NCBI GenBank assembly: GCA_964459725.1 | Contig: CAYWNT010000001.1 | Span: forward strand, 27,529-91,528 | Reading direction: 5' to 3' | Origin: an uncultured Gammaproteobacteria bacterium | Lineage (GTDB): Bacteria; Patescibacteriota; Patescibacteriia; Patescibacteriales; UBA12075 | Length of the DNA stretch: 64,000 nt | Part shown: positions 10,200-36,317 of the stretch, piece by piece | Numbering within the stretch: the stretch's first letter is position 1 | How the letters are laid out: each line of letters begins with the position of its first letter | Notes under the pieces: model-generated | What the model was told of the DNA's origin: nothing | The model's database searches: none | The model's input: the letters and a program-made list of their open reading frames with translations, nothing else | Translations under genes and position numbers: made by a program

Positions 10200-11159
10200 A
10201 TGCCAATAAAAATAACAACTATAGGCGGTGGTTCTGGTCAGTTTGTTTTGCTCTCTGCGCTTAGAGATATTAAGAATATAGAAATCAAGGCCATAGTTTC
10301 TATGGTTGATAGCGGTGGGAGTACAGGACGTCTCAGAGATGAATTTGGAGTTCTTCCTCCGGGGGATGTTTTGAAGTGTATATTGGCATTGTCTTCAAAT
10401 AGAGAGTCGGCCAGAAAGATTCTGCAAAAAAGATTTACAGGGCCTGGTAGATTAGCCGGGCATAATTCGGGTAACATGCTGCTTACTATTCTTTCCCAGT
10501 ACGCTGGTAGTTTCCCAGACGGAATAAAAGCGCTGGGAGAAGTGCTGGGAGCAAGGGGAGAAGTGTTGCCGGTTACTACCGACAAGGCAACACTGGTAGC
10601 TGAGCTTACAGATGGAAGCCGTCTCTATGGCGAATCAGCGATAGATGTTCCACGAGGGATGCAGAGAGAAAAGATAAAAAAGACTTACCTTGTTCCACAT
10701 CATTCAGACACCATCAAAGTCTATTTGCCTGTTATTGGGGCCATCAAAGATTCGGATTATATTATTCTGGGACCAGGAGATCTCTATACCAGCATCATTC
10801 CAAATTTATTGGTAGAGGGAGTCAAAGAGGCCATCAAAAAAACTAAAGCAAAGATTATCTATATTTCAAATCTGATGACCAAGTTTGGCGAGACTGATAA
10901 TTTTACTGGAAAAGATTTTGTAATAGAAATAGAAAAAGCAATTAATCGAAAAGTTGATATTGTTATATTTAATTCAACATGCCCAAGCAAAAGTATCCTT
11001 TCCGACTACTCTGAACAAAAAGCAAGATTGGTGGAAATGCCAAAAGAAGATAAATGGGGAGACAGGGAAACAATAAGAAAAGATATTCTAAATATAACCG
11101 GAAACATAATTCGTCATGATGAGAAAAAATTAGGAGAATTGATAGAATCTATTTTATAG
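10200..11159 (+). CDS. yvcK: YvcK/CofD-like protein (UPF0052 gluconeogenesis-factor family)
   Basis: 319 aa. The N-terminal sequence TIGGGSGQFVLLSAL...IVSMVDSGGSTGRLRDEFGVLPPGD is typical of the family. Confidence 0.8.
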   Translation: MPIKITTIGGGSGQFVLLSALRDIKNIEIKAIVSMVDSGGSTGRLRDEFGVLPPGDVLKCILALSSNRESARKILQKRFTGPGRLAGHNSGNMLLTILSQYAGSFPDGIKALGEVLGARGEVLPVTTDKATLVAELTDGSRLYGESAIDVPRGMQREKIKKTYLVPHHSDTIKVYLPVIGAIKDSDYIILGPGDLYTSIIPNLLVEGVKEAIKKTKAKIIYISNLMTKFGETDNFTGKDFVIEIEKAINRKVDIVIFNSTCPSKSILSDYSEQKARLVEMPKEDKWGDRETIRKDILNITGNIIRHDEKKLGELIESIL

Positions 11160-11191
11160 TTTAAAAATATTAAAAATTAATATAAAAAGAC

Positions 11192-11222
11192 AAAAGTGAG
11201 GCTATAATGGCTTCATTTTTTA
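11192..11222 (+). terminator. Rho-independent terminator
   Basis: Stem tgaggc/gcttca (one G-U pair) followed by ttttttat. Confidence 0.5.
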
Positions 11223-11233
11223 TTTCTATGCAG

Positions 11234-11261
11234 TTGACAAAAATTTGATTTGTGATATTAT
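11234..11261 (+). promoter_or_regulatory. Sigma70-type promoter for the PEP-CTERM protein gene
   Basis: TTGACA 11234-11239, a 16-nt spacer ending in TGa, TATTAT 11256-11261. Confidence 0.55.
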
Positions 11262-11365
11262 ACTTTGATGTTCTTTTTATTAAAAATAAATAAGGAGGTA
11301 ATTAAAAAGAAAAAGAGAGTAAGCAAAAGCAAGAAACCACTAAAATTACTTAAGGAGAATTGTTA

Positions 11366-12112
11366 ATGAAAAAGCTCATCATTATTACGTCAGTTGTTTT
11401 ATCTATTTTCTTATTGTCGTATGCGGTAAGTGCTTCCACTCTTTTAACCGAGGATTGGGAAGGCGGCATTGACTTAAGTGTTTGGAGATCCTGGGGGAGC
11501 CCTACCTCAACCCTGGAAAGCGGACCAGATTCGCTCGGACTTAATTCATTTCGCCCCAATGGCGATTCGAACTACGAAAGTGGTGTTGTCAGCTTGAATT
11601 CTTTCGATGTCACACCAGGCCTTCAGGTTTCTTTTTCCTCAATGAGAAGAAGAATCACGACACATTATAACTTTAATGTTGTGTCACTAACCACCTCTGA
11701 TCCCACAACTTTTGGCAACTCTACTGCTTTCTATCATGGACGTATTGGTCCTTATATTATGCACTCAGGAGAAACTGCAAATGGTGTTGGCGCCAAGCTT
11801 GCTGATGGTAACCCTTGGCAGAATGGAGTTAATGTAATTTCAGAATCCAGCATTGGAGAATGGATAGACTATATGTTCCAATTTAATGCTGATGGATCTG
11901 TCGGATATTTCCAGAATGGAATTCTCGCCCACACAACTGAAGCTGATTTTATTGATTACGCTACCGCCCCCGATGTGCACCTGGTTGTTGCCGGACGAGG
12001 CAACGGATTGATGGAAAGTATTTCAGTTACTCAGGCTGTTCCAGAACCTGCCAGCATGCTTCTTATCGGTTCCGGTCTCGCCGGACTTCTTGGTTTACGT
12101 CGGAAGAAATAA
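11366..12112 (+). CDS. Secreted protein with a C-terminal PEP-CTERM sorting signal
   Basis: The start is moved to ATG 11366 (SD aaggaga). Signal peptide MKKLIIITSVVLSIFLLSYAVSAS. The C-terminus VPEPASMLLIGSGLAGLLGLRRKK is a PEP motif plus a TM helix plus a basic tail. Confidence 0.8.
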   Translation: MKKLIIITSVVLSIFLLSYAVSASTLLTEDWEGGIDLSVWRSWGSPTSTLESGPDSLGLNSFRPNGDSNYESGVVSLNSFDVTPGLQVSFSSMRRRITTHYNFNVVSLTTSDPTTFGNSTAFYHGRIGPYIMHSGETANGVGAKLADGNPWQNGVNVISESSIGEWIDYMFQFNADGSVGYFQNGILAHTTEADFIDYATAPDVHLVVAGRGNGLMESISVTQAVPEPASMLLIGSGLAGLLGLRRKK

Positions 12113-12154
12113 ACTCCGACAAGATGTAAAAAATATCATAAAAATCTAATGATA

Positions 12155-12188
12155 GGCACGGAGTAATTATATTCCGTGCCTTTTTTTA
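12155..12188 (+). terminator. Rho-independent terminator
   Basis: Stem ggcacgga/tccgtgcc followed by tttttttat. Confidence 0.75.
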
Positions 12189-12328
12189 TTCGATTTTCCA
12201 ATATTAGACAAATAAAATTTATTATCTTTGTTTTGCAGTATTTTTGATTTTTTAAATTGTTGCAAAAGAGGAGGAATACAAGTAACACATCTCCTATTTT
12301 TTCAGGAGAGCTTTTTTTCATTTTTTGG

Positions 12329-12357
12329 TTGACTTTTTTTAAAAACAGTGGTATACT
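12329..12357 (+). promoter_or_regulatory. Extended -10 promoter for small paralog A
   Basis: TTGACT 12329-12334, a 17-nt spacer ending in TGg, TATACT 12352-12357. Confidence 0.6.
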
Positions 12358-12439
12358 AATTAACAGAAATTTTCGAGGAAGATAAAAATTGTTAAAAAAG
12401 CACTTTTACATACAAAAACACCTTTTAAGGAGGCATCTT

Positions 12440-12709
12440 ATGAATAAGGGCATAAAACCCAAACAACTTTATTCGTTCTCAGATGTCTTTTATTACCCTC
12501 CTAGGGATATTAGTGGCATATGGGAAACGGTAAGATTAAACAGAATGAATAAGTGGGAATTAGTGCGGCGTCATAGTACTAATCCAGGAGAGCCGGTTGG
12601 AAAAAAGATTTTAGTTAAAAATGGTTTAATTCGAATGTTGGGTCGTAGAATCGGCAAAGAAGAAATGGAAAAAATAATGTTGAATGCAAAAAACGAAAAA
12701 GAGGTGTGA
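12440..12709 (+). CDS. Small hypothetical protein, paralog A (SGIWET / W-LVRR family)
   Basis: The start is moved to ATG 12440, behind SD aaggagg. It shares QL(Y/F)SF, SGIWET, W.LVRR.S and PVG motifs with 12935-13207. Confidence 0.6.
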   Translation: MNKGIKPKQLYSFSDVFYYPPRDISGIWETVRLNRMNKWELVRRHSTNPGEPVGKKILVKNGLIRMLGRRIGKEEMEKIMLNAKNEKEV

Positions 12710-12759
12710 ATTTCATATCAAATATAAATAAGTCGAGATATTTATGTTTGGTGTAAAAA

Positions 12760-12789
12760 AAAGATCTAGCTAAACGCCAGGTCTTTTTT
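12760..12789 (+). terminator. Rho-independent terminator
   Basis: Stem aaagatct/aggtcttt (one G-U pair) followed by a T-run. Confidence 0.5.
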
Positions 12790-12807
12790 ATTTGTTGGGG
12801 AAGTAAC

Positions 12808-12835
12808 TTGACTTTTAGTAAAAAAAATGTAAATA
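12808..12835 (+). promoter_or_regulatory. Candidate promoter for small paralog B
   Basis: TTGACT 12808-12813, a 16-nt spacer, TAAATA 12830-12835. Confidence 0.35.
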
Positions 12836-12934
12836 TGCATTGAGATTCATTACAATAAGCTTAAACAAGAAAAAAGAAGAAAATAAAATAATTTTTAGTT
12901 TTTTAATGCTAATTATTGTCAAAGAGGTGCTTTT

Positions 12935-13207
12935 ATGGGTGTAGATATTAAACTTAACCAGTTATTTTCTTTTCCAGACGGCAAAACTCATCCAGACAAA
13001 AATTTTAGTGGCATATGGGAAACAACAGAAGTGACAAGTTTGCATGACCCATCGAAAACCAGATGGAGGTTAGTGCGGCGTTTAAGTGTCGATACAGAAG
13101 CGCCTGTTGGGGAGTCATTGTCTCTTCCTCCAAAAGTGATTGAGTTATTTGCTTACCGAGTTGATCGAAAAGCATTGGTTGGTACACCATTGAGCAATAA
13201 AAAATAA
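12935..13207 (+). CDS. Small hypothetical protein, paralog B (SGIWET / W-LVRR family)
   Basis: 90 aa with SD-like aaagagg. Motif-level similarity to 12440-12709. Confidence 0.6.
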   Translation: MGVDIKLNQLFSFPDGKTHPDKNFSGIWETTEVTSLHDPSKTRWRLVRRLSVDTEAPVGESLSLPPKVIELFAYRVDRKALVGTPLSNKK

Positions 13208-13241
13208 GTTATTGCATGTGTAAAAAGGGGAGGTAGAAACA

Positions 13242-13331
13242 ATGTGTATACAATATCATATTATGGTTTGGGCTGTTGCCTTAGCGCTTATGGGGCATGA
13301 ATTCCCAGCGGTTCCGATTGGCATCTGGTAG
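13242..13331 (+). CDS. Candidate 29-aa hydrophobic micro-protein
   Basis: ATG 13242 is preceded by the strong SD aaaggggagg at optimal spacing. The peptide is MCIQYHIMVWAVALALMGHEFPAVPIGIW. It falls below the ORF-track cutoff. Confidence 0.3.
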   Translation: MCIQYHIMVWAVALALMGHEFPAVPIGIW

Positions 13332-13373
13332 CAAAATAAAAAGAAAAACTTCTTTTTGAAAAATAAGAATAAA

Positions 13374-13404
13374 GGGTTCTCGATAAATATCGAAGCCCTT
13401 TTTT
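13374..13404 (+). terminator. Rho-independent terminator (copy 2 of the cassette)
   Basis: Hairpin gggttctcgat/atcgaagccc followed by a T-run. Near-identical to 10089-10123. Confidence 0.65.
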
Positions 13405-13406
13405 AT

Positions 13407-13435
13407 TTGTATGAATTTTTTTCGCAATGTATAAT
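13407..13435 (+). promoter_or_regulatory. Extended -10 promoter (copy 2 of the cassette)
   Basis: TTGTAT 13407-13412, a 17-nt spacer ending in TG, TATAAT 13430-13435. The ATG at 13442 lies 6 nt after the -10. Confidence 0.6.
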
Positions 13436-13441
13436 AAAAAT

Positions 13442-14779
13442 ATGAAAAGTTTAGATAATAATATAGCACAATTGAATAATCAGGAGGATATAAAACGAGC
13501 AAGAAAAGAATCGCGTCAAAAAGAAGGCAAGGAAAGCTTGGTTGAGAGGGCAGCTTTAGCGATTAGTAATCTTGTTAGCGGGTCTAAGTCAGAAGATTGG
13601 CCGGTAATTTATGATACACCCTTCGTAAAGGATGCAAAAAGCAAAAAAGACAAGAAAAAGATTACCAGAAGAGGGTTTTTGAAAATGGCTGCTGCTGTTG
13701 GGGTTGTTGGTGCTGGGGCTACAGTGGCTACTAATCCTTTAGCTAGAGCTGCGATCAAGGAGGTTTTGGGAGATCGGGGAATTGAAGAAGAGGACATAGC
13801 AGAAGATGAGATGTTCCTTGATAGTGAATTTTTTGATGAAGATCTAGAGAAGGACTGGGAAAAAAGTAAAAACTTATTTTCAAAAGAAGAGATAGCCGAC
13901 ATTATTAAAGGAAAAATTTCATTATTCAAGCAAAAAAGAGAAATGTCTTCAGTGAAAGAGGTGTTTGATGTAAAGAAAGCGGGAAAAGTTAAGGTAGTTC
14001 CTGGGGCAAAAGAAAAGATTTTTAATTATTGGGAGGATAAATACAAAAATGACCCTGTAAAGAGCAGGGATTTTGAAAATGGATTTAAGAAAGGTCAAAA
14101 GTGGAGCAAGGGAGCAAAAACAGTTTTTGAGGTAGTGGGAGCGCCGGCTGATTTAAGTCACTTGGCAATTGCGGAGTCATATTGGGAGCTAAATGCATTT
14201 TCAGGGGTTGCTTATGGCCCCTATTAGTTTACGAGAAAAACCGCCGACATGTATAGACTTAAAAATAGGGCAAATCCTTATGAGAGTGCTAGAGCTTGCG
14301 CTGAATGCTTGAAAGATTTATATAAAGCAACAGGAGATTGGGATTTAGCATTGAGCGGATATAATGGTGGTTATATTTGGGGGTACTTGAAAGATGCCAA
14401 ACAGAAAAAACAAAAACTATCATTTGATAATTTTTTGGTTTATTTGGCTGATTATCTAAATAATTATCATGAAAAAGTGCAAAAAATGGATAGTGTAATG
14501 TATCGGGTGAAGAGAGGAGATAATCTAAGTGCTATTTCAAAAAATTACTCAATTGATATGGATAAGTTGGCAGAAATGAATAAAATAAAAGATTCGAGTG
14601 ATATTAAGATAGGTCAAAAAATAAAAATACCGCCAACGAAAGATATTAGAGAAAAAATGGTGAAAAAGAAGTTTGCTCAGATACATCAAAACGCTGAATA
14701 CGCTGCAAAAGTAACTGCCGCCATAAAAAGAGCACAAGAAATGGAATCGGAGAACTTGAAATTCGCTAGTCTAAAATAG
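13442..14779 (+). pseudogene. LysM-domain lytic transglycosylase (SLT/GH23) interrupted by one in-frame TAG (14225-14227)
   Basis: ORFs 13427-14227 and 14249-14779 are in the same frame. Across the stop the SLT motif reads AESYWELNAFSGVAYGPY*FTRKTADMY, with the stop where the conserved Gln of GLMQ belongs. Downstream come the YNGG motif and a LysM repeat (YRVKRGDNLSAISKNY...IKIGQKIKIP). A Tat-like TRRGFLK sits at residues 80-86 of the track ORF. Confidence 0.6.
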
Positions 14780-14787
14780 TTATTTCT

Positions 14788-16158
14788 ATGAAGAAAATTA
14801 TATTTTTATTGGTATTACTATTTCCAATTATCGTTTCCGCCCAAACCATCCAAGAGAGAATGTCTGGAAGGATTTTGTTGCAGGTTGAGAAGAATGGTGA
14901 AGCTTGGTATGTGAGTCCGGGAAATAATTTTCGGTATTTCTTAGGTAGGCCAGCTGACGCTTTTAGAGTGATGAGAGAGTTGGGGGTGGGTATAAGTAAT
15001 GCTAATTTGGAAAAGATTCCAGTAGGGCTTGTAGATTTTGGCCAAAATATAGATAGCGACAGTGACGGATTACCTGACAAGATGGAAGAGGCCTTAGGAT
15101 TGAATGTAAATAACGCTGACACAGATGGCGATGGACATGGAGACGCGCAAGAGATAGAAAATGACTACAATCCTTTGAGTGGTGGTGAAAGTCTTGTTGA
15201 TTATAGCTTTACTAAAAGTAATTTAGGTAAAATATTTTTACAAGTCGAGAGGAATGGCGAGGCTTGGTATTTAGATCCAAAAACTGAGAAGAGGTACTTC
15301 CTGGGTCGTCCTAATGATGCCTTCAGAATAATGAGGCTCCTAGGGACTGGGATTACCAATAATGATTTAGCAACTATAAAGTCATTCTCACCGGATTTTT
15401 TAGTAGAAGATGTTGAGCTGGTAGTACATGATCTAATAAATAAGGAGCGAGAAAAAGAAGGGCTAGGCACATTGAAGTGGAATGACGATCTAGCTAATGT
15501 GGCCCGTGAGCATAGTGCAAATTTGGCAAGAGAGAATGAGGATTTCACAGGTTTGGGCAAGAGCTGTGACTATCCTATTATTCATCACGAGGGATTTAAT
15601 TTTGGAATATATAACAGGGAGAGACTGGAGAATAGAAATGTGCATTATTATGAAAAAATAGGAGAAAATATTGCTCTTATGTCAGTAGCCAATATTAATG
15701 TGAGATATATGTCGGGAGATGGGATTGAAAAAGCACTAGAGGACTGTGAGGAGGGTAGAGATGATAATCAAAATTTTAGTGATGCGCTAAAAAAGGAAGA
15801 AAATGAGGATAAAAAGCTTGAAATGATAAAGTCTGAGATAGACAAAAGGAAAGAAAGATTTGAAAATACCGTATTGTTTGAGGACTATAGCATAACCTGG
15901 AGCACAAAAAATGAAATTTCTATATCTACAGTAGAAGGCTGGATGAATAGCCCGGGGCATAGAAAAAATATCCTGACTGAAGATTTTGACGAAGCCGGAA
16001 TCGGTTCTGTTTATATAAACGGATACTTAATCTCTACCCAAGTATTTATAAAGAGAGCAGAATGCGGGTATAAGGATGGAGCTTGCTGCGAGAAGGAGGG
16101 CTACTACCCGTATTGCTTTACACCCCTGGAGTGCAATCAAAATAATATTTGTTATTAA
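14788..16158 (+). CDS. Secreted CAP/SCP (PR-1-like) domain protein with two N-terminal ~55-aa repeats and TSP3-like Asp-rich repeats
   Basis: It has a signal peptide. The repeats are GRILLQVEKNGEAWYVSP...YFLGRPADAFRVMRELGVGI and GKIFLQVERNGEAWYLDP...YFLGRPNDAFRIMRLLGTGI. There is also a DSDSDGLPD...DTDGDGHGD segment, and the C-terminal CAP motifs are GENIA...GWMNSPGHRKNIL. Confidence 0.8.
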   Translation: MKKIIFLLVLLFPIIVSAQTIQERMSGRILLQVEKNGEAWYVSPGNNFRYFLGRPADAFRVMRELGVGISNANLEKIPVGLVDFGQNIDSDSDGLPDKMEEALGLNVNNADTDGDGHGDAQEIENDYNPLSGGESLVDYSFTKSNLGKIFLQVERNGEAWYLDPKTEKRYFLGRPNDAFRIMRLLGTGITNNDLATIKSFSPDFLVEDVELVVHDLINKEREKEGLGTLKWNDDLANVAREHSANLARENEDFTGLGKSCDYPIIHHEGFNFGIYNRERLENRNVHYYEKIGENIALMSVANINVRYMSGDGIEKALEDCEEGRDDNQNFSDALKKEENEDKKLEMIKSEIDKRKERFENTVLFEDYSITWSTKNEISISTVEGWMNSPGHRKNILTEDFDEAGIGSVYINGYLISTQVFIKRAECGYKDGACCEKEGYYPYCFTPLECNQNNICY

Positions 16159-27820: not shown

Positions 27821-27855
27821 ATAGCAACTTGCTTAGGTAGGTTGCTATTTTTTTA
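27821..27855 (+). terminator. Rho-independent terminator
   Basis: Stem atagcaac/gttgctat followed by a T-run. Confidence 0.65.
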
Positions 27856-28009
27856 TGAAATTTTTATGAATTCTTTATTTGACAAATTGCCTTGAAATAT
27901 TTTCTTGCATATGATAAAAAACAAGGTCAATATTTTTATAAATTACTTCAGCGCTTTTGATTGCAGTATTGATGAATTATTTAGCGTTTTATCAAGGGGG
28001 ACAAAAAAT

Positions 28010-31000
28010 ATGTACAATATAAACTTTATCCCAAAACCTAAGAAAAAGGTTGATTTTTCTAAGGTATTGCCATTGATGGTTATTTTTTCAATGGTGATTT
28101 CTATGTTTCCGGCACCTATCTTTGCTGATTTAAATACAGGTATCGATTCTGGAAATAAAATTGATTTTTCTACTATTATTGGACTCGGAAAACATCAATA
28201 CAAAAATGGAAATTATTCCAAATTACAGGACGCTTATAGGTATATCTTTAATAATATCTATACAGATGGTTCTAAGCTACTTGCCTATCCTGAAAAATTT
28301 TCTGCTTCAGAGTCGGGAGCTAGTATTAATTATGATCAAGGAGCAGTATTTAATTTGGACGAAAATGATGACTTGAGTGATCCGAGACAGAAAAATAAAT
28401 TTGAATACTTTGTAAGTTCAACTACGGCAGAGCTAGGAAGAGCTAAGGCTTTATATGATGGCAACATTGCTATATTAGATCTTGAAAAGCACGTAAACGG
28501 AGAATTAAAAAATCTTACATTTGAATCCTCTTCTTATTGTCATATTTTGCATACTTATATTGGTAAGCACGAACAATGTTTCTCTGGCATGAGAGATTAT
28601 GAGGAGTATTTAGATGATGAAAAGTTTGCCGAAAAAGAAGAAACAAGTATTGTTTATTTTCATGTGGATGATGCTAAAAACGGAAAGTTAATGAATGGCA
28701 ATAATCCTCTCTTTAATATTTTGATCTTGCCTGATTTAATTTTTGGTCAAGAAGATAAAGTTCTTGAGAGCTTAGGAGTTGAGGGACAAAAAGCGATCAG
28801 AGATTTTGCAGCTGCAGGAGGAACTGTTTTCTCAACTGGAAAGTCATCTTATTTACTTGAAAAAATTGGACTTCTGGCAGATGGCACAGTTGATAAAGGC
28901 ACAGTAGTAAGAAGCAACTTCAACAAGATTAATTTGAATTGGAACGGGAAAGATGATTATGAAAGTAAATTGCTCAAGATGGGAAATTTTGAAAATGTTT
29001 TTGACGAAACTTTTCTTAATCCGGAAAACAAAGTGTTGAAAGTCATGGCTGACCACTATGTGCGCACTGGAGCGATAGAAGACAATGAGAATAAGTATAA
29101 TGAGACTATAGAAATACTACGAGGATTTAATCATAGATCTCAAATGTATTTCCTAACAAATTATTTTGTTAATTCAGAGAACGACGGAGAACTTAATGAG
29201 GTGGCAAGTTATAATTTAACAATAGGAAATAATTTAACATTTCAAAACGAAGATTCCTTAAGTTCTATAGAAAGGCCAGCCGACAAGATGACAGCCATAG
29301 CTTGGAAAAAATATGATAAAGGAAAAGTGGTGGTTATAAACGGAAATCCAGCATCTGGTCATGAAAAGTATTATCCTTATATTTTTAATTCAGTTTTCTT
29401 GTCTGGAGCAAAAAGCATAATTGCTGACTTAAAGGTGGCGCAAAAAACAAACCCTGACTTAGATGATGATATAATCCCAGCTTATGAAAAAGAGGTGGGA
29501 CTCCTAGGGAGCTTTAAAGTTAATAATTTTTTCAATAAACCAATTGAGAATATAAAGATTGGTGTAAATATTTATAAAGGATTTGAGATCGGTCAAAGTG
29601 ATAGCCTTTCTAATTGTGAAGTAAGAACTTTGGATGATAATGATTTGTATAACCAGAGACTAGAATGTGTTTATGACACCATAGAAGCTTTTGAAGAAGT
29701 ATATTTTGATTTTCCTGTTGTTATGACAGATCCGTATGTCACCAGAAAGAGAAAGGACATAGAAGCAGCAGATGGGGAGATGATTTATACAAGAGATGGA
29801 TTGTGGCAAGAAACAGTAAGTGGAGGAATTAGTTATTTACAAGCTAGAAATAGTTCAGAGATAAGAGGAGAGTATAATCCTGATCCGTCTTCGTTTTACC
29901 CCTTGAAAGGTGAAGGTGATTACATAGACAATGTTTTGTCAGCTCAAAATAGGGCACATACTGACGCTCTAGACGTTGAGCATATTGCAGTAGTTCCATT
30001 GATATCACCTGTGGTTGATGGGAATGATCAAGCTTCACTTGCTTATACTTTGGAGTTTTACAATGAATACTATCAGAACAAAAAAACAGAAAATTCTTAT
30101 GTGTTTCCATTTGAACAATATGGAGAAGTTAGGGATTATGATTATTTAGACTATAAGGAGCTTGGTTGTTCTGATGTAGTACTATCTCCTGACTGGGATA
30201 CACCAGTAAAAGTTGAGCTCATGAATAGAAGCGAAGCTGACTTACCAGTAAGCACAAGTTGTGAAGATGGAAGTCTGAGTAATATTGTTGGAAGAAATTA
30301 TGCGTACAGTATAAATAATAACAACCTAGCAACACTTCAAAGGTTTTTTCCAGATGCTGGAGACACTTACACCAATGCAACACAAAGACAATTGGTATTC
30401 CTAGACACTACCAAAGAGAAAGGAGCTAGAGATTACTATGAAGGATCTATTCCGGAAGAAATAAGAAACGGCAAGACGGCTAAGAAGAAATTGGTTTTTG
30501 CCAGAAATGACGTTTATTTTTATGATAATGACAATTATCCTCTACCATTAGGTGTTGAAGATAATGATATTTATATTTCAGTTGATAAAATGGATGAATG
30601 TGGTGACCCGGAGAAAGGAATTGTAAATCCTGGATATTTTGATCATGAAAAAGAGGGCGGTATAAAGCCAAATGAATATGAAAATGAACTGAGGTGTGAA
30701 CATGGAAAGAAGAAGATTCACGCTAATGTGGTAGAGGATTATACAAATGGAAAAGTTGAGCTATCTCATTATCTTTTCCCTATTACAGATAGTGATAACA
30801 TAAACGAAGTTCATGATTTGGCAGATTTTAATACTTCTTCCAATGAGCACAAAGACTATAGCGAGGTTGAATTTGTAAAAGCGCATACAAATATTTTTAC
30901 ATTGAATCCTAGAACAACACCACTCGGTGGTAAGTTCGTCTTTACTTTGCCTAGTGATGTTAACTTTAATTCAGATGATCCAGTGGGTGAAGGTCTTATT

Positions 31001-34000
31001 AATTTCTCTGCTGACCATGTGGCTTTTAGAGAGATTGAATATAATGCGGAAACAGGAGAGGTGATTGCGAAGTTTATTCGCGGCAAGATGCCAAATGAAA
31101 GATATGGCAAACCAGATATAATGCAGGTTAATTTTGAGGATCTGGATACTGATAGAGATTTTGACCTTAAGGTAGAGCTCAAGAGCTTGGAATATGATAT
31201 TGGCAATGGAGAAAATATGGAAATTTACAAAAATGCTGAGTTCACAGATAATATGCAAATGCAGAAAAAGCCCTTTCTTCGAATGCCTAGTCTTATATTG
31301 AAATTCAGATTAAATAGAGGGGAGAATGAAGATGAAAGTTATTTCAAAAGATACGAAAACATGGAGCCGTTTATTAGATACGGTGTTTATATCCAGGAGC
31401 TATTAAAACATAGAACAGTATATGGTTTTGCAGAAAATCATCCCGTGAGAGATCCTGGGTTGGTACTTAGAAGTGGAGGATTCTCAACATTTTCAAATAT
31501 TGGAGCATCTTCAATTCCGTTCAAAGAATACTTGCAAACAGGAATTAGACAGAGTGTGCCAGCTTCAGCGGTTACTTCTCGTATTGATTATAAAGATATA
31601 TGGAATAGACAATGGACCATGCCAGCCAGAACCGTGCTTCCTGATGTTCCTCCAATTCCGCCACCACTTAGAAATTTTATGATCAATACTACTTTTGAAA
31701 TGAGAGACATGGAAACCGGAGAGCGACACTTAGAGTGGGCATCGGACAGAGAGGTGGAAGTGCTTCATAAATTAAAAACAGTAAATAATTACCCTAAGTA
31801 TTTTGATTGTACAGCCTGTGAGGGAAATGAACTTTTGGTAAGAGAGGACAAGGAAGTAAAGGTGAGAAAAAAATATTATGTGGATATTAGTGAAGAGAGT
31901 CTTTACCCAAATCCTAATAGCTATCCATTAGCCAGAAATATGCCTGATAATGATATGGATGGATTACCTAATTATATGGAGGCAAATATTGGTTCTGATG
32001 AAAATAGTGAAGACACAGATGGAGATGAATATTTGGATGGGGAAGAATTTGTAAATGGATACAATGTCACAGGTGAAGGGGAAGCTTCAACCAGCACTTC
32101 ATCAAGCGCAGGAGCAAGTACAACAATGGAAGAGATAGTAGAAGAAGAGGAAGAAGCTCAAGGATTAAATGGTGACAACGAAGAAGATCCTTCGACCACT
32201 TCGACAGGCTCCCTCCAGGAAGGCGGGCAGGCTCCTTCGGCAAGCTCTCCTTCGACAGGCTCCCTCCAAGACGGCGGGCAAGTAGGACAAGAGGTACAGG
32301 AGGGTGAATCTGGAAATTCTACTGAGGAAGAATCAAATAAAGAAGATTCAACTGAAGAACAGGAAGAGTCTTCTGATTCTGAATCTGAAACTCCTCAAAC
32401 ACAGGAAGTTGAAGTCGAAACAATTGAACAAGTAGAAAGTTCATCTGATGAGGCTAGCAATTTTGCAATTTCATCTGATGGGGTAGACCATCCTGAAAAT
32501 TTGTATTTGAAGTCAGGAAATACTGCCAATTATGGAATGTGTTATCAATCAAAAGGAGATTTAGTTGACGGAGACGTGCTAACTGATAGTGAGAGAAATA
32601 AAATATTAGATGTTGAATTATGTGAAAGTGATGACGAGTGTAGTGAATTGGCTGATATACCTAGCCTATCCAAAAGACCAAGAGGAGAGAGTGGCAACTG
32701 GAACCATTCAGAGGCGGTTGAGGATTATTATCCAGAGAATTATATAAATGAAAGCATGTGGAGTCTGACTCATTATGATTATGCAGACAATGCCTTTGAG
32801 AAAGGTTATGTTTATCATATGGACAATCTTCTTCCTAATTTAGACAATATTAACAATAGAAAAATTCTAAGACCACATAATATTATAGCTCAGCCAATGT
32901 ACAAGGGTCTTGGTTATGCCATGAATTATGACAGAAATTATACATCGAAATTTTATGATGTAGAAGGAAATAAAATTACAGGTTGGCAAAGTGATAACCT
33001 GCAAAACAAAGACGATACATTGCTTGGCGGTCAGCTAGAAGCAAATGAGATTTCAGTAGACAAGGATAATCAGATGAAAAATAGATTTGTAGAGATTACA
33101 AATTTGGAAAATGGTGGAGAAAAGGTAGACAGGGCACTGGGCAATATTTATGCTTGTTTATTTAATAGGTGGAGAGCGAAAGTAGATCCTAATGACACTA
33201 AGTTTGTTTATCCTGACAATGTTTATAAGAATAATGTTATTCCTATTATTCCAGAGCTAAACAAGAATGATGCAAAGTTGACTAGTTATAATTGCGGAAG
33301 TGAATATTATACTCCAGAAAACATTCATGAAATAGACAATATCAAAGAAACTTATTCTAAGGATTGGTTATATTTTGGAATGGGACTTAGAGGTGGAGCT
33401 AAGGAAACCATAAACATAGTTTCAAAGCTAGATCCAATCGAGGGAGTGGCCTATGAGGGAGCGACCAAGATAAATACTGGAGCTAGATTTACTTATTGGA
33501 ATCCGGCCAATGGACCTAATTCGTTTATAGTAACTGATAATGACGTGAATATTGTAGAAGCTAAGCGAAGCAATATCGTGGTGAAGAAAGAAATCATTCC
33601 TGTGGAGGTGCCAACGTTTAATGCTGATATTTATCATTTGATATCTGTGGAAGACGCTAAAGAACATTGGCGATGGTTTAGGGATTCGCCGTATACAAAG
33701 CATTTCGGCTTTGGTGATGCTTCTACCGGAGTAATAGTTGGAAATAACAAGAAGTTGAAAAATAATGGCAGTATAATTAATCCTGGCCAGGAAACCGTTG
33801 TGAAAATTGAATTACTTAATAATAGCGGGTATGATTGGAATTTAATCAAATCACAGAATGGAAAACCAGCGATTGAAGCCCTAGAATTACCAGCAGAAGC
33901 AATTAATGCTAATGATTATTTGTACAAACTTAAACACGCCATCAAAAAGCCGATCAAGTTTAATTTTATAGATCTTGATATTCCGGCTGAGATTAAGGAC

Positions 34001-36115
34001 TATGTAGAAATTATTCCATCAACTTACAATATTAAAGTAGCAGGAATGCTGTTTGACTTTGAGAATATTAATGCTACTAGAATTAGAGATGCTTATAAAG
34101 GTACTTACTATTTAGACCTTAAACTTAAGGACAATTTCCCAGACGAGCTTCGAGGTAGAACTTTTGACATAGGCGTAAAGATTAATTCTGAATATTTTGA
34201 TAAATATCCAGGACATAATAGTCCCGTTGCTCATGATTATGAGTTAGAAATTCCTGATATTAGATTTGGGGTACCTTTCGGAGATGACATGGGTTGGCTT
34301 GCTGGCAGGGTGCATAGAGTTAGTGGACATTCTAAAAATATAAGTATTACAGATGAAATGCCAGAAGGCATAGAGCCAATTGCTATAAAAAGAATCAATG
34401 CTTGGAGTGTAAAGAAGTTTAGAGAAGTGGCCAATGATCCAGTAGCCAAACAAAGAGACATGGATAATTTGTTTAATAAGGCCTGGTATGGAGAAGAAAT
34501 TAATTTTTCTAGTGATAAATTGGAGAATGGAAGCACTGAAATTGAAATTGATTTTAAGAGAAATGATATGAGAGAGTTCCCATTGCCACCTAGTAAGTAT
34601 GGACGCAGCGAAGACGCGAAAATTTACTTCCTTGTAAAATCAAAAGCCAAACAATTAGAATTTGGAGAAAGTATAGTGAATAAGAATTTAGAATTAGACT
34701 ATATTGATACAAATGGGTATAGCAAAACATCAGAAATGAGTAAGCCGAGCTATAGAAAGGTGAAAGCATCAGGCGCTGACCTGGTGGCAACTTATAAAGC
34801 TGAGATTATTGGTGGATCCACAGGAGATACCTTGAGCGCTCAAAAGTTATTTAGAGTTGGAGCAAATTTTGTGAGAGCAGACGTAGAAATATATAACAAT
34901 GGTTCAGCAATTGCATACAAGCCCGTGGTAAAAGTATTTGTTCCAAGAGATGTAAACATAGTTCAAAAAGGAAATATTAAAATACTTAAAGAAAACGGAA
35001 AAAATATTGCAGAAATTTCATTAAACAGAGATATGCCACCAGGAGACAAAACATCTGTAGAATTGATTTTAGAAGTAGGAGCAGAGGATGATCAGTCTGA
35101 TCTTTTAAGTCTTTTGATCAACACTGCTAATGCGGTGAGTGACAAAGTGACAGTGATAGAAAAAGTAGAAACAGAGTTTGATCTGACAAGCACCAGAAAT
35201 GAAAATAGGGTAACTCAGGTAACTGCAGGAAGTTTTGACATGGAATATGCTGATAATGTTTTTTCTAGTTCTGATATTTCAATTGGTGTCACAGAAGTAG
35301 AAGGAGACTCTTATAAAGTAAAATTAACCGGGAACAATATTTCTAATCCATTTTATAAATTGTTTATTAGAAACAATGACTCCGAAGACTTTATTTCACT
35401 CCAGAGTGACTATTCAAGTTCTGGAGAGTACGCTATTGATTTAATAAAAGGGGAGACTCAAATATTTGGAGCCTTGTATGAAAAGAGGAGTGTGCTAAAT
35501 GAAAGTGGAGAAGAAAATGAAGAGTACGTGAAGCTAGCAGAATCATCAGTTTACATGGCTAGTGAAAAAATATTTGGTGGAAGTGGGTTAACAACAGTTC
35601 ATAAATCATTTCTAGCTTCTAGTATCTCAACTAACGATATAATAGATGATGCGACCATGGTTGAAGTGGTAACTGAAGCTGAAAAAGAAGAAATAAAGAC
35701 AAGCGAAGAAGCAATAGAGATAAGTGAGGGGGAAATTCATGAAGATAGTGAAAATGAAATATTGGAAATAAGTATTTGTGGAAGAACAGATGAAGAGGGA
35801 AGGTTAGTGAAAGCTACAAAAATATATTATGTGTCAGAGGGACGAGCAGTTTTTGTTCCAAATTTGAATGAGCTACAAAAATATGCTGGAAAACAAATTT
35901 TTGATGTAAGCCATGAAACTGTTCGGGAGTATTATGATGAAACAAGCGAAAAGAGTTATCCTGACGGAACATTGATTAGAGGATCATGGATATACTTTAT
36001 TAATAGTGATAAGATGGTGTATTTAAGAAGCATGAAAGACCTCCAAGAATATTCAGGAATACCGATATGCAATATAAACAACCAAGAACTGAGAAATTAT
36101 CAAGATAATTACTAA
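28010..36115 (+). CDS. Giant secreted multi-domain surface protein (~2,700 aa)
   Basis: The start is moved to ATG 28010, behind SD aaggggga. The signal peptide ends in ...VISMFPAPIFA. Its recognisable parts are:
- a GATase1-like segment, FNILILPD...AIRDFAAAGGTVFSTGKS
- a TSP3-like segment, DNDMDGLPNYME...DTDGDEYLDGEE
- an acidic Ser/Thr/Glu-rich linker (about 32080-32460)
- CARDB/Ig-like segments near the C-terminus
- two C-terminal ~45-aa repeats
No LPXTG motif or TM anchor was found. Confidence 0.8.
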   Translation: MYNINFIPKPKKKVDFSKVLPLMVIFSMVISMFPAPIFADLNTGIDSGNKIDFSTIIGLGKHQYKNGNYSKLQDAYRYIFNNIYTDGSKLLAYPEKFSASESGASINYDQGAVFNLDENDDLSDPRQKNKFEYFVSSTTAELGRAKALYDGNIAILDLEKHVNGELKNLTFESSSYCHILHTYIGKHEQCFSGMRDYEEYLDDEKFAEKEETSIVYFHVDDAKNGKLMNGNNPLFNILILPDLIFGQEDKVLESLGVEGQKAIRDFAAAGGTVFSTGKSSYLLEKIGLLADGTVDKGTVVRSNFNKINLNWNGKDDYESKLLKMGNFENVFDETFLNPENKVLKVMADHYVRTGAIEDNENKYNETIEILRGFNHRSQMYFLTNYFVNSENDGELNEVASYNLTIGNNLTFQNEDSLSSIERPADKMTAIAWKKYDKGKVVVINGNPASGHEKYYPYIFNSVFLSGAKSIIADLKVAQKTNPDLDDDIIPAYEKEVGLLGSFKVNNFFNKPIENIKIGVNIYKGFEIGQSDSLSNCEVRTLDDNDLYNQRLECVYDTIEAFEEVYFDFPVVMTDPYVTRKRKDIEAADGEMIYTRDGLWQETVSGGISYLQARNSSEIRGEYNPDPSSFYPLKGEGDYIDNVLSAQNRAHTDALDVEHIAVVPLISPVVDGNDQASLAYTLEFYNEYYQNKKTENSYVFPFEQYGEVRDYDYLDYKELGCSDVVLSPDWDTPVKVELMNRSEADLPVSTSCEDGSLSNIVGRNYAYSINNNNLATLQRFFPDAGDTYTNATQRQLVFLDTTKEKGARDYYEGSIPEEIRNGKTAKKKLVFARNDVYFYDNDNYPLPLGVEDNDIYISVDKMDECGDPEKGIVNPGYFDHEKEGGIKPNEYENELRCEHGKKKIHANVVEDYTNGKVELSHYLFPITDSDNINEVHDLADFNTSSNEHKDYSEVEFVKAHTNIFTLNPRTTPLGGKFVFTLPSDVNFNSDDPVGEGLINFSADHVAFREIEYNAETGEVIAKFIRGKMPNERYGKPDIMQVNFEDLDTDRDFDLKVELKSLEYDIGNGENMEIYKNAEFTDNMQMQKKPFLRMPSLILKFRLNRGENEDESYFKRYENMEPFIRYGVYIQELLKHRTVYGFAENHPVRDPGLVLRSGGFSTFSNIGASSIPFKEYLQTGIRQSVPASAVTSRIDYKDIWNRQWTMPARTVLPDVPPIPPPLRNFMINTTFEMRDMETGERHLEWASDREVEVLHKLKTVNNYPKYFDCTACEGNELLVREDKEVKVRKKYYVDISEESLYPNPNSYPLARNMPDNDMDGLPNYMEANIGSDENSEDTDGDEYLDGEEFVNGYNVTGEGEASTSTSSSAGASTTMEEIVEEEEEAQGLNGDNEEDPSTTSTGSLQEGGQAPSASSPSTGSLQDGGQVGQEVQEGESGNSTEEESNKEDSTEEQEESSDSESETPQTQEVEVETIEQVESSSDEASNFAISSDGVDHPENLYLKSGNTANYGMCYQSKGDLVDGDVLTDSERNKILDVELCESDDECSELADIPSLSKRPRGESGNWNHSEAVEDYYPENYINESMWSLTHYDYADNAFEKGYVYHMDNLLPNLDNINNRKILRPHNIIAQPMYKGLGYAMNYDRNYTSKFYDVEGNKITGWQSDNLQNKDDTLLGGQLEANEISVDKDNQMKNRFVEITNLENGGEKVDRALGNIYACLFNRWRAKVDPNDTKFVYPDNVYKNNVIPIIPELNKNDAKLTSYNCGSEYYTPENIHEIDNIKETYSKDWLYFGMGLRGGAKETINIVSKLDPIEGVAYEGATKINTGARFTYWNPANGPNSFIVTDNDVNIVEAKRSNIVVKKEIIPVEVPTFNADIYHLISVEDAKEHWRWFRDSPYTKHFGFGDASTGVIVGNNKKLKNNGSIINPGQETVVKIELLNNSGYDWNLIKSQNGKPAIEALELPAEAINANDYLYKLKHAIKKPIKFNFIDLDIPAEIKDYVEIIPSTYNIKVAGMLFDFENINATRIRDAYKGTYYLDLKLKDNFPDELRGRTFDIGVKINSEYFDKYPGHNSPVAHDYELEIPDIRFGVPFGDDMGWLAGRVHRVSGHSKNISITDEMPEGIEPIAIKRINAWSVKKFREVANDPVAKQRDMDNLFNKAWYGEEINFSSDKLENGSTEIEIDFKRNDMREFPLPPSKYGRSEDAKIYFLVKSKAKQLEFGESIVNKNLELDYIDTNGYSKTSEMSKPSYRKVKASGADLVATYKAEIIGGSTGDTLSAQKLFRVGANFVRADVEIYNNGSAIAYKPVVKVFVPRDVNIVQKGNIKILKENGKNIAEISLNRDMPPGDKTSVELILEVGAEDDQSDLLSLLINTANAVSDKVTVIEKVETEFDLTSTRNENRVTQVTAGSFDMEYADNVFSSSDISIGVTEVEGDSYKVKLTGNNISNPFYKLFIRNNDSEDFISLQSDYSSSGEYAIDLIKGETQIFGALYEKRSVLNESGEENEEYVKLAESSVYMASEKIFGGSGLTTVHKSFLASSISTNDIIDDATMVEVVTEAEKEEIKTSEEAIEISEGEIHEDSENEILEISICGRTDEEGRLVKATKIYYVSEGRAVFVPNLNELQKYAGKQIFDVSHETVREYYDETSEKSYPDGTLIRGSWIYFINSDKMVYLRSMKDLQEYSGIPICNINNQELRNYQDNY
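32199..32282 (+). repeat. GC-rich direct repeat inside the giant gene (33-nt core repeated with a 51-nt period)
   Basis: cttcgacaggctccctccaggaaggcgggcagg (32199-32231) versus cttcgacaggctccctccaagacggcgggcaag (32250-32282), with 3 mismatches. It is translated as STGSLQ(E/D)GGQ and shares 10-11-mers with 22101-22113. Confidence 0.8.
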
Positions 36116-36267: not shown

Positions 36268-36317
36268 ATAGCACATTCTATAGCACATTCCATGGAATGT
36301 GCTATAGAATGTGCTAT
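36268..36317. repeat. 50-bp perfect palindrome
   Basis: ATAGCACATTCTATAGCACATTCCA|TGGAATGTGCTATAGAATGTGCTAT. Each arm contains the direct repeat ATAGCACATTC twice. It is flanked by ACGACCGTCAAA (36193-36204) and its near-inverse TTTGACCGTCGT (36319-36330). Confidence 0.9.

Follow-up and report, generated by a model that had tools for sequence, protein, structure and literature searches.

What is the giant protein encoded by the largest gene in a stretch of bacterial DNA, and what holds it to the cell that makes it? The question concerns a gene in contig CAYWNT010000001.1 (assembly GCA_964459725.1), and "the window" here means the whole stretch of 64,000 nucleotides (nt) that was analysed (positions 27,529 to 91,528 of the contig, forward strand). 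An initial annotation described the product as a secreted multi-domain protein of about 2,700 amino acids (aa) without a recognisable anchor. It proposed that the protein is a prime candidate for host attachment in an episymbiotic cell of the candidate phyla radiation (CPR) type. The outline of the protein has held up, whereas the setting and the role assigned to it have found no support. The giant protein represents an undescribed family of large modular proteins, most likely of the cell surface and of a new kind, and the points of interest are the distribution of this family and the serial replacement of its anchor. Taken together, the evidence makes it probable, though far from certain, that this is a Sec-exported protein of a previously unannotated family which most likely resides on the cell surface.

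The gene, the largest of the window as had been noted, lies within an unbroken open frame on the forward strand (27905–36115). Translation from the ATG at 28010, which is preceded by a Shine–Dalgarno-like site, yields a product of 2,701 aa with a Sec-type signal peptide, in agreement with the secreted protein described before. Read by eye, this signal peptide comprises a basic n-region (MYNINFIPKPKKKVDFSK), a hydrophobic core and then PAPIFA/D. Gene callers choose an alternative ATG at 27911 (2,734 aa), which would place the hydrophobic core about 50 residues inside the protein. Since the N-termini of the homologues open directly with the signal peptide, the ATG at 28010 is the better start. 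The concern that the frame might be broken in the underlying data proved unfounded. Exactly the same protein was found on six contigs (ENA and Logan assemblies) and is also present in NCBI and JGI; the second member of its cluster differs by one residue. As the identical protein recurs in independent assemblies, the open reading frame (ORF) is neither broken nor an assembly artefact. The G+C content of the gene equals that of the rest of the window (about 35%). An intrinsic-terminator-like hairpin closes the upstream gene and sets the giant gene apart as a unit of its own. Downstream, a perfect 44-nt palindrome between the giant gene and a tRNA-methyltransferase gene is probably a bidirectional terminator, and the giant gene looks monocistronic.

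The relatives of the protein place it in a family of its own. A word-index search with the full protein and a six-sequence profile returned only six clusters, a large under-count compared with an exhaustive search. The latter, performed with a hidden Markov model (HMM) of the core (aa 600–1850), found 325 representatives when sequences were clustered at 50%; of these, 105 reach E ≤ 1e-30 and about 30 are full-length (2,300–2,800 aa). The window protein shares with the giant form full-length colinearity, ten cysteines conserved in at least 29 of 30 members, and the blocks NPDPSSFYPL, HRT..E.H/PPIPPPLRNF, NLQNKD and YWNPANGPNSF. All nine organism-named full-length relatives are type-I membrane proteins of protists. 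They represent seven genera: Anaeramoeba flamelloides, Pelomyxa schiedti (two paralogues), Pygsuia biforma, Willaertia magna, Carpediemonas membranifera, Chilomastix cuspidata and Barthelona sp. Besides the metamonad-affiliated Anaeramoeba, Barthelona, Carpediemonas and Chilomastix, the lineages include Archamoebae, Breviatea and Heterolobosea. The scaffolds that carry these members measure 355 kb in Willaertia, 501 kb in Carpediemonas, 2.1 Mb in Barthelona and up to 8.4 Mb in Anaeramoeba, and one metagenomic member (P0005) adjoins a ubiquitin-like/S27a fusion gene. Most full-length members without an organism name also possess a C-terminal helix and tail. A metagenome scan returned mostly contigs of about 7.5 kb at 33–37% identity, which is the level of the named protist members. 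This family, to which the giant protein belongs, had not been annotated before and occurs chiefly in free-living protists, most of them anaerobic. The named members examined are all annotated as "hypothetical" or mislabelled, and the Anaeramoeba symbiosome paper does not mention the family.

The bacterial members comprise the window protein, P0002, P0003 (Desulfobacteraceae), P0004 (Desulfobacterales, on a 4.8-Mb contig), L005 ("bacterium ELA025") and the partial P0007; fragments of the family have also been binned as Falkowbacteria and SEEP-SRB2. An unrooted neighbour-joining tree, built on 760 core columns, unites the six bacterial sequences in a single clade with full bootstrap support (100 of 100). 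Core identity amounts to 60–73% within this clade, 28–46% between it and the eukaryotes, and 26–73% from eukaryote to eukaryote, so the eukaryotic sequences diverge far more among themselves. Over its full length, the window protein is 49–52% identical to every other bacterial member and about 33% (29–35%) to the eukaryotic ones. At 49% identity, the L005 copy is no closer to it than the Desulfobacterales copies are, despite coming from a related organism, which implies that the gene tree departs from the organism relationships. The kinship of ELA025 with the window organism is apparent from a 153-aa ORF, NrdD and an NrdG-like protein, which are 69%, 75% and 56% identical, respectively (L005:18203–21791 versus window:16884–20516). 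The ELA025 giant gene directly adjoins nrdDG; as a conserved neighbourhood this arrangement was rejected, because it shows only the kinship of the two organisms.

Two further relatives deviate from the regular form. In the SEEP-SRB2 metagenome-assembled genome, the family gene is split (L008:8307–10736 and 10846–14613, encoding 809 and 1,255 aa), which could be due to a pseudogene, a frameshift or an assembly error. P0036 (L040:2760–11888; 3,042 aa) is a divergent member whose translation with table 11 differs from the recorded product, so its organism uses an alternative genetic code. The neighbours of P0036 are large same-strand ORFs without Pfam matches, apart from one small DUF559 gene.

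A short form of about 1,400–1,750 aa occurs in archaea and bacteria. It is exported, its C-terminal ends vary, and it is colinear with aa ~214–315, 425–684, 1078–1264, 1777–1944 and 1999–2362 of the window protein. Because the short forms align colinearly without aa ~685–1077 and ~1265–1776, the giant form can be regarded as a prokaryotic core with two large insertions. The only Pfam matches in the short forms are DUF11, Big and PKD, and one short-form relative is flanked by a beta-helix protein and a CBM96 protein.

The giant protein consists of a Cys-bearing conserved head of about 1,800 aa, an immunoglobulin (Ig)-like beta-sandwich stalk of about 650 aa and a lineage-specific C-terminal module. 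Conservation drops from the head toward the tail: identity between the window protein and the bacterial relatives is 68–72% in the head blocks, falls to 35–38% along the distal stalk and ends at about 19%, the level of unrelated sequences, in the tail. The core head blocks retain 68–72% identity between unrelated bacteria and 44–48% to the protists; for the most conserved block (aa 1078–1268), the values are 72% to the bacterial relatives and 47% to the protists. The Cys-rich block holds the conserved Cys1511, Cys1538, Cys1544, Cys1716 and Cys1762 as well as the motifs WSLTHYDY, HMDN and NLQNKDDTLL. An extracytoplasmic head, stabilised by disulfide bonds, would fit the ten cysteines conserved across the family.

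Domain searches, which were to reveal whether the protein is a known enzyme complex subunit, gave no such indication. Pfam returned nothing significant for the whole protein and for ten overlapping 400-aa segments, and NCBIfam nothing meaningful for the whole protein. A CglD match in Pfam (E = 0.02) was discarded, as it reflects the acidic/TSP3 region only. Profile searches against the PDB with the core, with the full alignment of 26 sequences and with block 1078–1268 including the short forms produced only a weak integrin calf match, and thus no solved homologue. AlphaFold2, run on both halves with a six-sequence alignment, was confident only for the stalk and a few beta-sandwiches; most of the head received a predicted local distance difference test (pLDDT) score below 50. 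The comparison of both half models with the PDB by Foldseek gave generic Ig-like stalk matches alone, at a template modelling (TM) score of about 0.1.

Within the head, a segment had been read as GATase1/ThuA-like. A beta-alpha-beta unit of this appearance (LILPD...GGTVFSTGKS) does lie at aa ~211–330, but neither a GATase nor a ThuA match was obtained with Pfam (E ≤ 1 for the whole protein, E ≤ 10 for the 400-aa segments) or with NCBIfam. A 14-sequence profile of aa 205–330 yielded weak, coherent PDB matches to the GATase1-like middle domain of GH42-type glycosidases (6tvk, E = 0.03; 6t5o, E = 0.15; 4oif/5dfa, E = 0.9). The AlphaFold2 model shows a strand-helix-strand-helix arrangement with a pLDDT of only 58–77, and Foldseek found no such match for it. 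The nucleophile elbow reads S-T-G-K-S, with G-K-S present family-wide and no Cys. With G-K-S in place of the nucleophile Cys, such a module would be non-catalytic, should it have this fold. The likeness to GH42-type middle domains lends the original reading weak support.

The stalk was modelled by AlphaFold2 as tandem beta-sandwiches (aa ~1851–2516, pLDDT 70–90). Its Foldseek matches are integrin alpha legs, Gram-positive pilins and alpha-2-macroglobulin, all of them generic Ig-like stalks, and a sequence profile matched the calf domain of integrin alpha5 weakly (E = 0.04). The CARDB/Ig-like modules suggested for this part are supported as far as the beta-sandwich fold and a DUF11-like character are concerned, but not as CARDB. 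Neither CARDB nor DUF11 profiles of Pfam matched the giant protein, and DUF11 matches occur only in distant short-form relatives, at a position equivalent to aa ~2285–2360 (domain aa ~2270–2370).

Between two conserved head blocks, the window protein carries a pair of TSP3-type motifs and an acidic linker. The motifs DNDMDGLPNYME (aa 1313) and DTDGDEYLDGEE (aa 1335) fit the pattern DxDxDGxxDxxE, and the initial annotation had considered this stretch very similar to one in a CAP protein of the window. This similarity is real: DNDMDGLPNYME...DTDGDEYLDGEE and DSDSDGLPDKME...DTDGDGHGDAQE of the CAP protein agree at 17 of 34 positions with the same 22-residue spacing, and their alignment score of 90 compares with 27 ± 5 for shuffled sequences (0 of 5000 shuffles reach it). 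The Pfam model TSP3_bac, however, scored only 11.3 bits on the giant protein, below its cut-off of 25 (E = 0.33; PF18884/PF02412 family). The composition of residues 1301–1500 (27% D+E, 20–26% S+T, about 1% K+R) bears out the acidic Ser/Thr/Glu linker. Together, TSP3 pair and linker make up a lineage-specific insert of about 210 aa where most relatives have 5–37 aa, and P0002 carries an independent acidic insert of 240 aa at the same site. The insert occupies a permissive site. It would be a local addition, with a TSP3 module that recurs in another secreted protein of the same genome.

The CAP protein itself (window:14788–16155, forward strand) is an exported CAP/YkwD-domain protein that bears the TSP3 pair in common with the giant protein. 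It also contains two repeats of about 50 aa (GRILLQVEKNGEAWYVSP...RYFLGRPADAFRVMRELGVGISN), which no Pfam or NCBIfam model matches. The possibility that the C-terminal repeats of the giant protein correspond to these "GRILLQVEKNGEAWY" repeats was rejected (z < 1.5).

The tail is the part in which the family members differ most, and it bears on the question of anchoring. The giant protein contains no LP.TG motif anywhere, no Cys among its first 176 residues that could form a lipobox, and no C-terminal transmembrane helix (maximum 19-residue hydropathy of the tail, 0.81). The PEP-CTERM and IPTL-CTERM models (TIGR02595, TIGR04174, PF18203) did not match the tail at E ≤ 1, nor was there an SLH match (PF00395). 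The same sorting-signal runs detected P0004 (29.8 bits), P0003 (23.4 bits) and a PEP-CTERM protein of the window (11360–12109; 24 bits) as positive controls. The absence of LPXTG, transmembrane helix, PEP-CTERM signal and lipobox is thus borne out and extends to IPTL-CTERM and SLH. With no motif, lipobox or model match, the giant protein is ruled out as a sortase, lipoprotein or PEP-CTERM substrate. What it has instead are the two C-terminal repeats, reported earlier as about 45 aa long. They align over 48 residues without gaps and with a score of 90, compared with 21 ± 4 for shuffled sequences (0 of 2000).

The relatives show what may be expected at this position. P0004 and P0003, both from Desulfobacterales, end in IPTL-CTERM (29.8 and 23.4 bits; cut-off 20.5), and P0002 ends in SLH (41.4 bits) at the position equivalent to the window repeats. 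The tails of L005 and P0007 consist of an extra domain and helical repeats, and that of P0036 is long and K/W-rich; none of them was recognised. Outside the bacterial clade, 17 of the members examined reach the C-terminus; 16 of these have a transmembrane helix and a cytoplasmic tail, whereas P0040 lacks a hydrophobic segment. The Thermoplasmata short form likewise has a transmembrane helix after its last beta-sandwich. The post-stalk segment is therefore an anchoring, sorting or add-on module in all full-length relatives examined bar P0040, and the acidic linker and two 48-aa repeats of the window protein occupy exactly the anchor position of its relatives. The repeats gain indirect support as an anchor because they sit where the homologues carry IPTL-CTERM, SLH or a transmembrane helix. 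Table 1 lists the features of the locus.

Table 1. Features of the giant gene and its flanks (window coordinates; aa numbering from the ATG at 28010)
Feature	Position	Strand	Remarks
Intrinsic-terminator-like hairpin and T-run	27821..27848	+	12-bp stem; 1 found versus 0.2 expected
Shine–Dalgarno-like AAGGGGGA	27994..28001	+	8 nt 5' of ATG 28010; read from sequence
Coding sequence of the giant protein	28010..36115	+	2,701 aa plus stop; identical protein on 6 contigs
Sec-type signal peptide, aa 1–39	28010..28126	+	read from sequence; no lipobox cysteine
N-terminal conserved alpha/beta region, aa 57–425	28178..29284	+	GATase1-like unit at aa ~211–330; conserved Cys177/Cys190
Beta-sandwich region with conserved Cys536/Cys553, then NPDPSSFYPL block, aa 426–700	29285..30109	+	common to short prokaryotic relatives
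Insertion 1, aa 701–1077	30110..31240	+	giant form only; confident beta-sandwich at aa ~955–1090
Most conserved head block, aa 1078–1268	31241..31813	+	RYGVYIQELLKHRT...ENH...PDVPPIPPPLRNF...NNYPKYF
Pair of TSP3-type DxDxDG calcium-binding motifs, aa 1313–1346	31946..32047	+	50% identical to CAP pair at 15052–15153
Acidic Ser/Thr/Glu low-complexity linker, aa 1347–1490	32048..32479	+	composition
Cys-rich conserved block, aa 1495–1776	32492..33337	+	giant form only
Conserved block LRGG...YWNPANGPNSF, aa 1777–1860	33338..33589	+	common to short prokaryotic relatives
Stalk of tandem Ig-like beta-sandwich domains, aa 1861–2516	33590..35557	+	AlphaFold2, Foldseek; conservation falls C-terminally
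Second linker, aa 2517–2595	35558..35794	+	unique to giant window protein; aa ~2556–2595 acidic
C-terminal repeat 1, aa 2596–2643	35795..35938	+	EGRLVKATKIYYVSEGRAVFVPNLNELQKYAGKQIFDVSHETVREYYD
C-terminal repeat 2, aa 2652–2699	35963..36106	+	DGTLIRGSWIYFINSDKMVYLRSMKDLQEYSGIPICNINNQELRNYQD; putative anchor module
Perfect 44-nt palindrome	36271..36314		20-bp stem, 4-nt loop; downstream intergenic

As a surface protein, the giant protein may be pictured as follows. The two 48-aa repeats behind the acidic linker would serve as the anchor, probably by binding an envelope polymer non-covalently, as SLH does in P0002, and the stalk would keep the head away from the cell. The head would bind or process an extracellular ligand common to the carriers, possibly a glycan or another polymer; that it is so strongly conserved across domains favours a shared ligand or substrate over the role of a host-specific adhesin. 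The bacterial clade may have arisen by one inter-domain transfer and subsequent spread among bacteria with replacement of the anchor, which is the part in which bacterial and protist copies chiefly differ.

Several observations weigh against this picture. Retention by the terminal repeats has gained indirect, positional support, but none of the other proteins searched contains the repeat. The repeat has no detectable relative in Pfam or NCBIfam. Searches with a repeat HMM through all six-frame ORFs of the window, 47 loci and about 200 family proteins revealed no further copy, and there is none in the 10-kb flanks of the window or in any related locus searched. The expectation that the repeat might be shared with other secreted proteins was thus disappointed (a word-index search with the repeats returned no candidates, but it also missed the protein itself and is uninformative). 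This solitary occurrence counts against a shared wall-binding module, because a module common to several proteins of a genome would normally show. If an outer membrane is present, as the PEP-CTERM protein and an RND pump suggest, Sec export alone reaches the periplasm only. The head has neither a recognisable fold nor a catalytic signature: most of it was modelled at a pLDDT below 50, and the PDB profile searches with it came back empty. A comparison of bacterial members and short forms revealed no conserved neighbouring genes in any branch of the family. Finally, the direction of the transfer is inferred from an unrooted neighbour-joining tree and from the depth of diversity.

Some of these points would be accommodated if the protein were released as an extracellular enzyme or binding protein, with the repeats serving for ligand binding, for oligomerisation or as a secretion signal. 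This reading agrees with the missing recognised anchor and with the confinement of the repeat to a single protein among those examined. The very conserved head blocks, rich in W, Y, D, N, H and R like those of carbohydrate-active proteins, the weak similarity to the GATase1-like middle domain of GH42-type enzymes, and the short form encoded between a beta-helix protein and a CBM96 protein point in the same direction. Nevertheless, every examined relative has a post-stalk module, although the tails of L005/P0007, P0036 and P0040 were not recognised. Recognised anchors occur in the other three typed bacterial members and, with the exception of P0040, in all 17 examined members of transmembrane type that reach the C-terminus. 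Because the relatives bear such modules, many of them recognised anchors, a loss of anchoring in the window protein only would be less economical. Moreover, a 650-aa stalk makes sense mainly in a tethered protein, and no catalytic motif or solved homologue was found. Release therefore appears unlikely, even if it deserves serious consideration. An explanation of another kind, that the gene is a eukaryotic contaminant or part of a chimeric assembly, might be suggested by the mostly eukaryotic origin of the full-length family members. It is so improbable that it can practically be set aside: the 200-kb contig has bacterial genes on both sides of the giant gene at the same G+C content of about 35%, independent assemblers recovered the identical gene, a Shine–Dalgarno site and bacterial terminators accompany it, and its product clusters with bacterial copies that bear bacterial sorting signals.

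The role first proposed, a host-attachment adhesin of an episymbiotic CPR-type bacterium whose head binds the surface of the host cell, is improbable as well. A large, exported protein with a beta-sandwich stalk would suit it, and so would the nearby type IV pilus genes without a secretin, the repeats of the CAP protein, which we take to be of a kind that occurs in CPR genomes, the relative binned as Candidatus Falkowbacteria (though on a 7-kb single-gene contig) and the divergent P0036 from an organism with an alternative genetic code. On the other hand, several features of the contig are atypical of CPR, namely its chemotaxis operon, RND efflux pump, FabA-like gene and PEP-CTERM protein. The window adds type IV pili without secretin, ComEC and NrdD on the other side of the balance, and contains no rRNA gene. 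This gene mix does not fit a typical CPR episymbiont, and the nearest species representative is the unclassified "bacterium ELA025", so that the premise of the initial annotation is not supported. The same head occurs, at 50% full-length identity, in Desulfobacterales (on the 4.8-Mb contig) and also in protists. Instead of varying, this head belongs to the best-conserved parts of the protein, and no variation was seen between assemblies, where rapid evolution had been suggested as a check. Such strong conservation across bacteria and protists is unlike that of fast-evolving adhesins and speaks against a prime candidate for host attachment.

A more far-reaching possibility is that the bacterial clade derives from a protist surface protein, which was passed among anaerobic bacteria (Desulfobacterales, the window lineage and others), re-fitted with an anchor each time, and could mediate the physical association between bacteria and anaerobic protists. 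The bacteria would then display the copy of a protist surface receptor, and this copy would act by homophilic binding or via the ligand of the protist protein. Anaeramoeba, which carries family members, does house Desulfobacteraceae symbionts (PMC11550330). This scenario is nonetheless a speculative and doubtful extension, and the surface protein with a common extracellular ligand remains the preferred reading.

The surroundings of the giant gene contain further features. A chemotaxis operon on the forward strand (window:37753–54940) encodes two methyl-accepting chemotaxis proteins, CheW, CheY, CheB, CheA, CheC and CheD. It is directly followed by type IV pilus genes for PilB, PilC, two pilins and a 741-aa PilM that is fused to an SH3 domain at its C-terminus; the cluster showed no secretin gene. 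The arrangement suggests chemosensory control of the pili. The small PEP-CTERM protein (window:11360–12109, forward strand) ends in a signal that scores 32 bits with Pfam and 24 bits with TIGR02595. An exosortase system is therefore to be expected in this organism, although the giant protein does not use it. On the same contig, about 2.8 kb past the window end (L042:13835–20657, near window coordinate 66836), a gene-caller product of 8,899 residues without a Pfam match begins. Of these residues, 2,274 are visible; they include an N-terminus that resembles a signal anchor as well as a long acidic linker, and show no similarity to the giant family or its repeats. The genome thus encodes at least one far larger exported protein. 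Near the other end, a large serine recombinase gene (window:819–2564, forward strand) overlaps with its 3' end a tRNA gene on the opposite strand (2475–2547). Beyond the window start (L043:11433–18146) lie a Toprim/primase-like gene, a DUF5659 gene and a gene for a TrmB-like regulator. The recombinase region looks like an integrated mobile element at a tRNA.

The family as a whole is conserved over about 2,300 residues, yet it is represented by a model in neither Pfam nor NCBIfam and lacks a solved relative. Its giant form spans several deep protist lineages and a handful of unrelated bacteria, its short form archaea and bacteria. The result is a natural domain swap, in which one head and stalk are combined with IPTL-CTERM, SLH, a transmembrane helix, helical repeats or the 48-aa repeats. 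As this swap places the 48-aa repeat at the anchor position, it is a candidate for a new envelope-binding module. If the proposed history is true, it would be a clear case of inter-domain transfer of a very large surface protein among dwellers of anoxic habitats. Should the head mediate cell–cell or cell–matrix contact, it would also bear on the association of anaerobic protists with their bacterial partners.

Among known proteins, the closest in architecture are the protist type-I proteins KAJ3426543.1 (Anaeramoeba flamelloides), KAH3732381.1 (Pelomyxa schiedti), KAG9397478.1 (Carpediemonas membranifera) and KAL9649755.1 (Willaertia magna), all annotated as hypothetical. They are colinear with the window protein over about 2,300 aa, with 29–35% identity over the full length and 44–48% in the head blocks, and have the same ten cysteines and the same order of head and stalk. 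They differ by a transmembrane helix and cytoplasmic tail in place of the two soluble 48-aa repeats, and lack the TSP3/acidic insert of about 210 aa. The bacterial P0003, P0004 and P0002 resemble the window protein in signal peptide and domain order and are 50–52% identical in head and stalk. They end, however, in IPTL-CTERM (P0003, P0004) or SLH (P0002) rather than in the novel repeats, and P0003 and P0004 also lack the acidic insert. Among the short forms, the Thermoplasmata "PKD domain-containing protein" MCK5290629.1 is exported and has a colinear core, but like the other short forms it lacks the insertions at aa ~685–1077 and ~1265–1776.

Two groups of well-known surface proteins offer looser parallels. 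For each half of the protein, the top Foldseek matches were the thigh and calf domains of integrin alpha legs (E down to 6e-9), and integrin alpha shares its type-I topology with the eukaryotic family members. This likeness is generic (TM score of about 0.1), with no evidence of a beta-propeller head or a beta-subunit partner here. RTX adhesins of the LapA/MpIBP type, SiiE and Bap are giant, exported proteins with Ig-like extenders. They resemble the window protein in the beta-sandwich stalk, the acidic calcium-binding motifs and a ligand-binding region distal to the anchor. These adhesins, however, contain dozens of near-identical repeats and often depend on type I secretion, whereas the window protein has a Sec signal, about five to six dissimilar stalk domains, and a unique, strongly conserved and non-repetitive head that makes up two thirds of its length.

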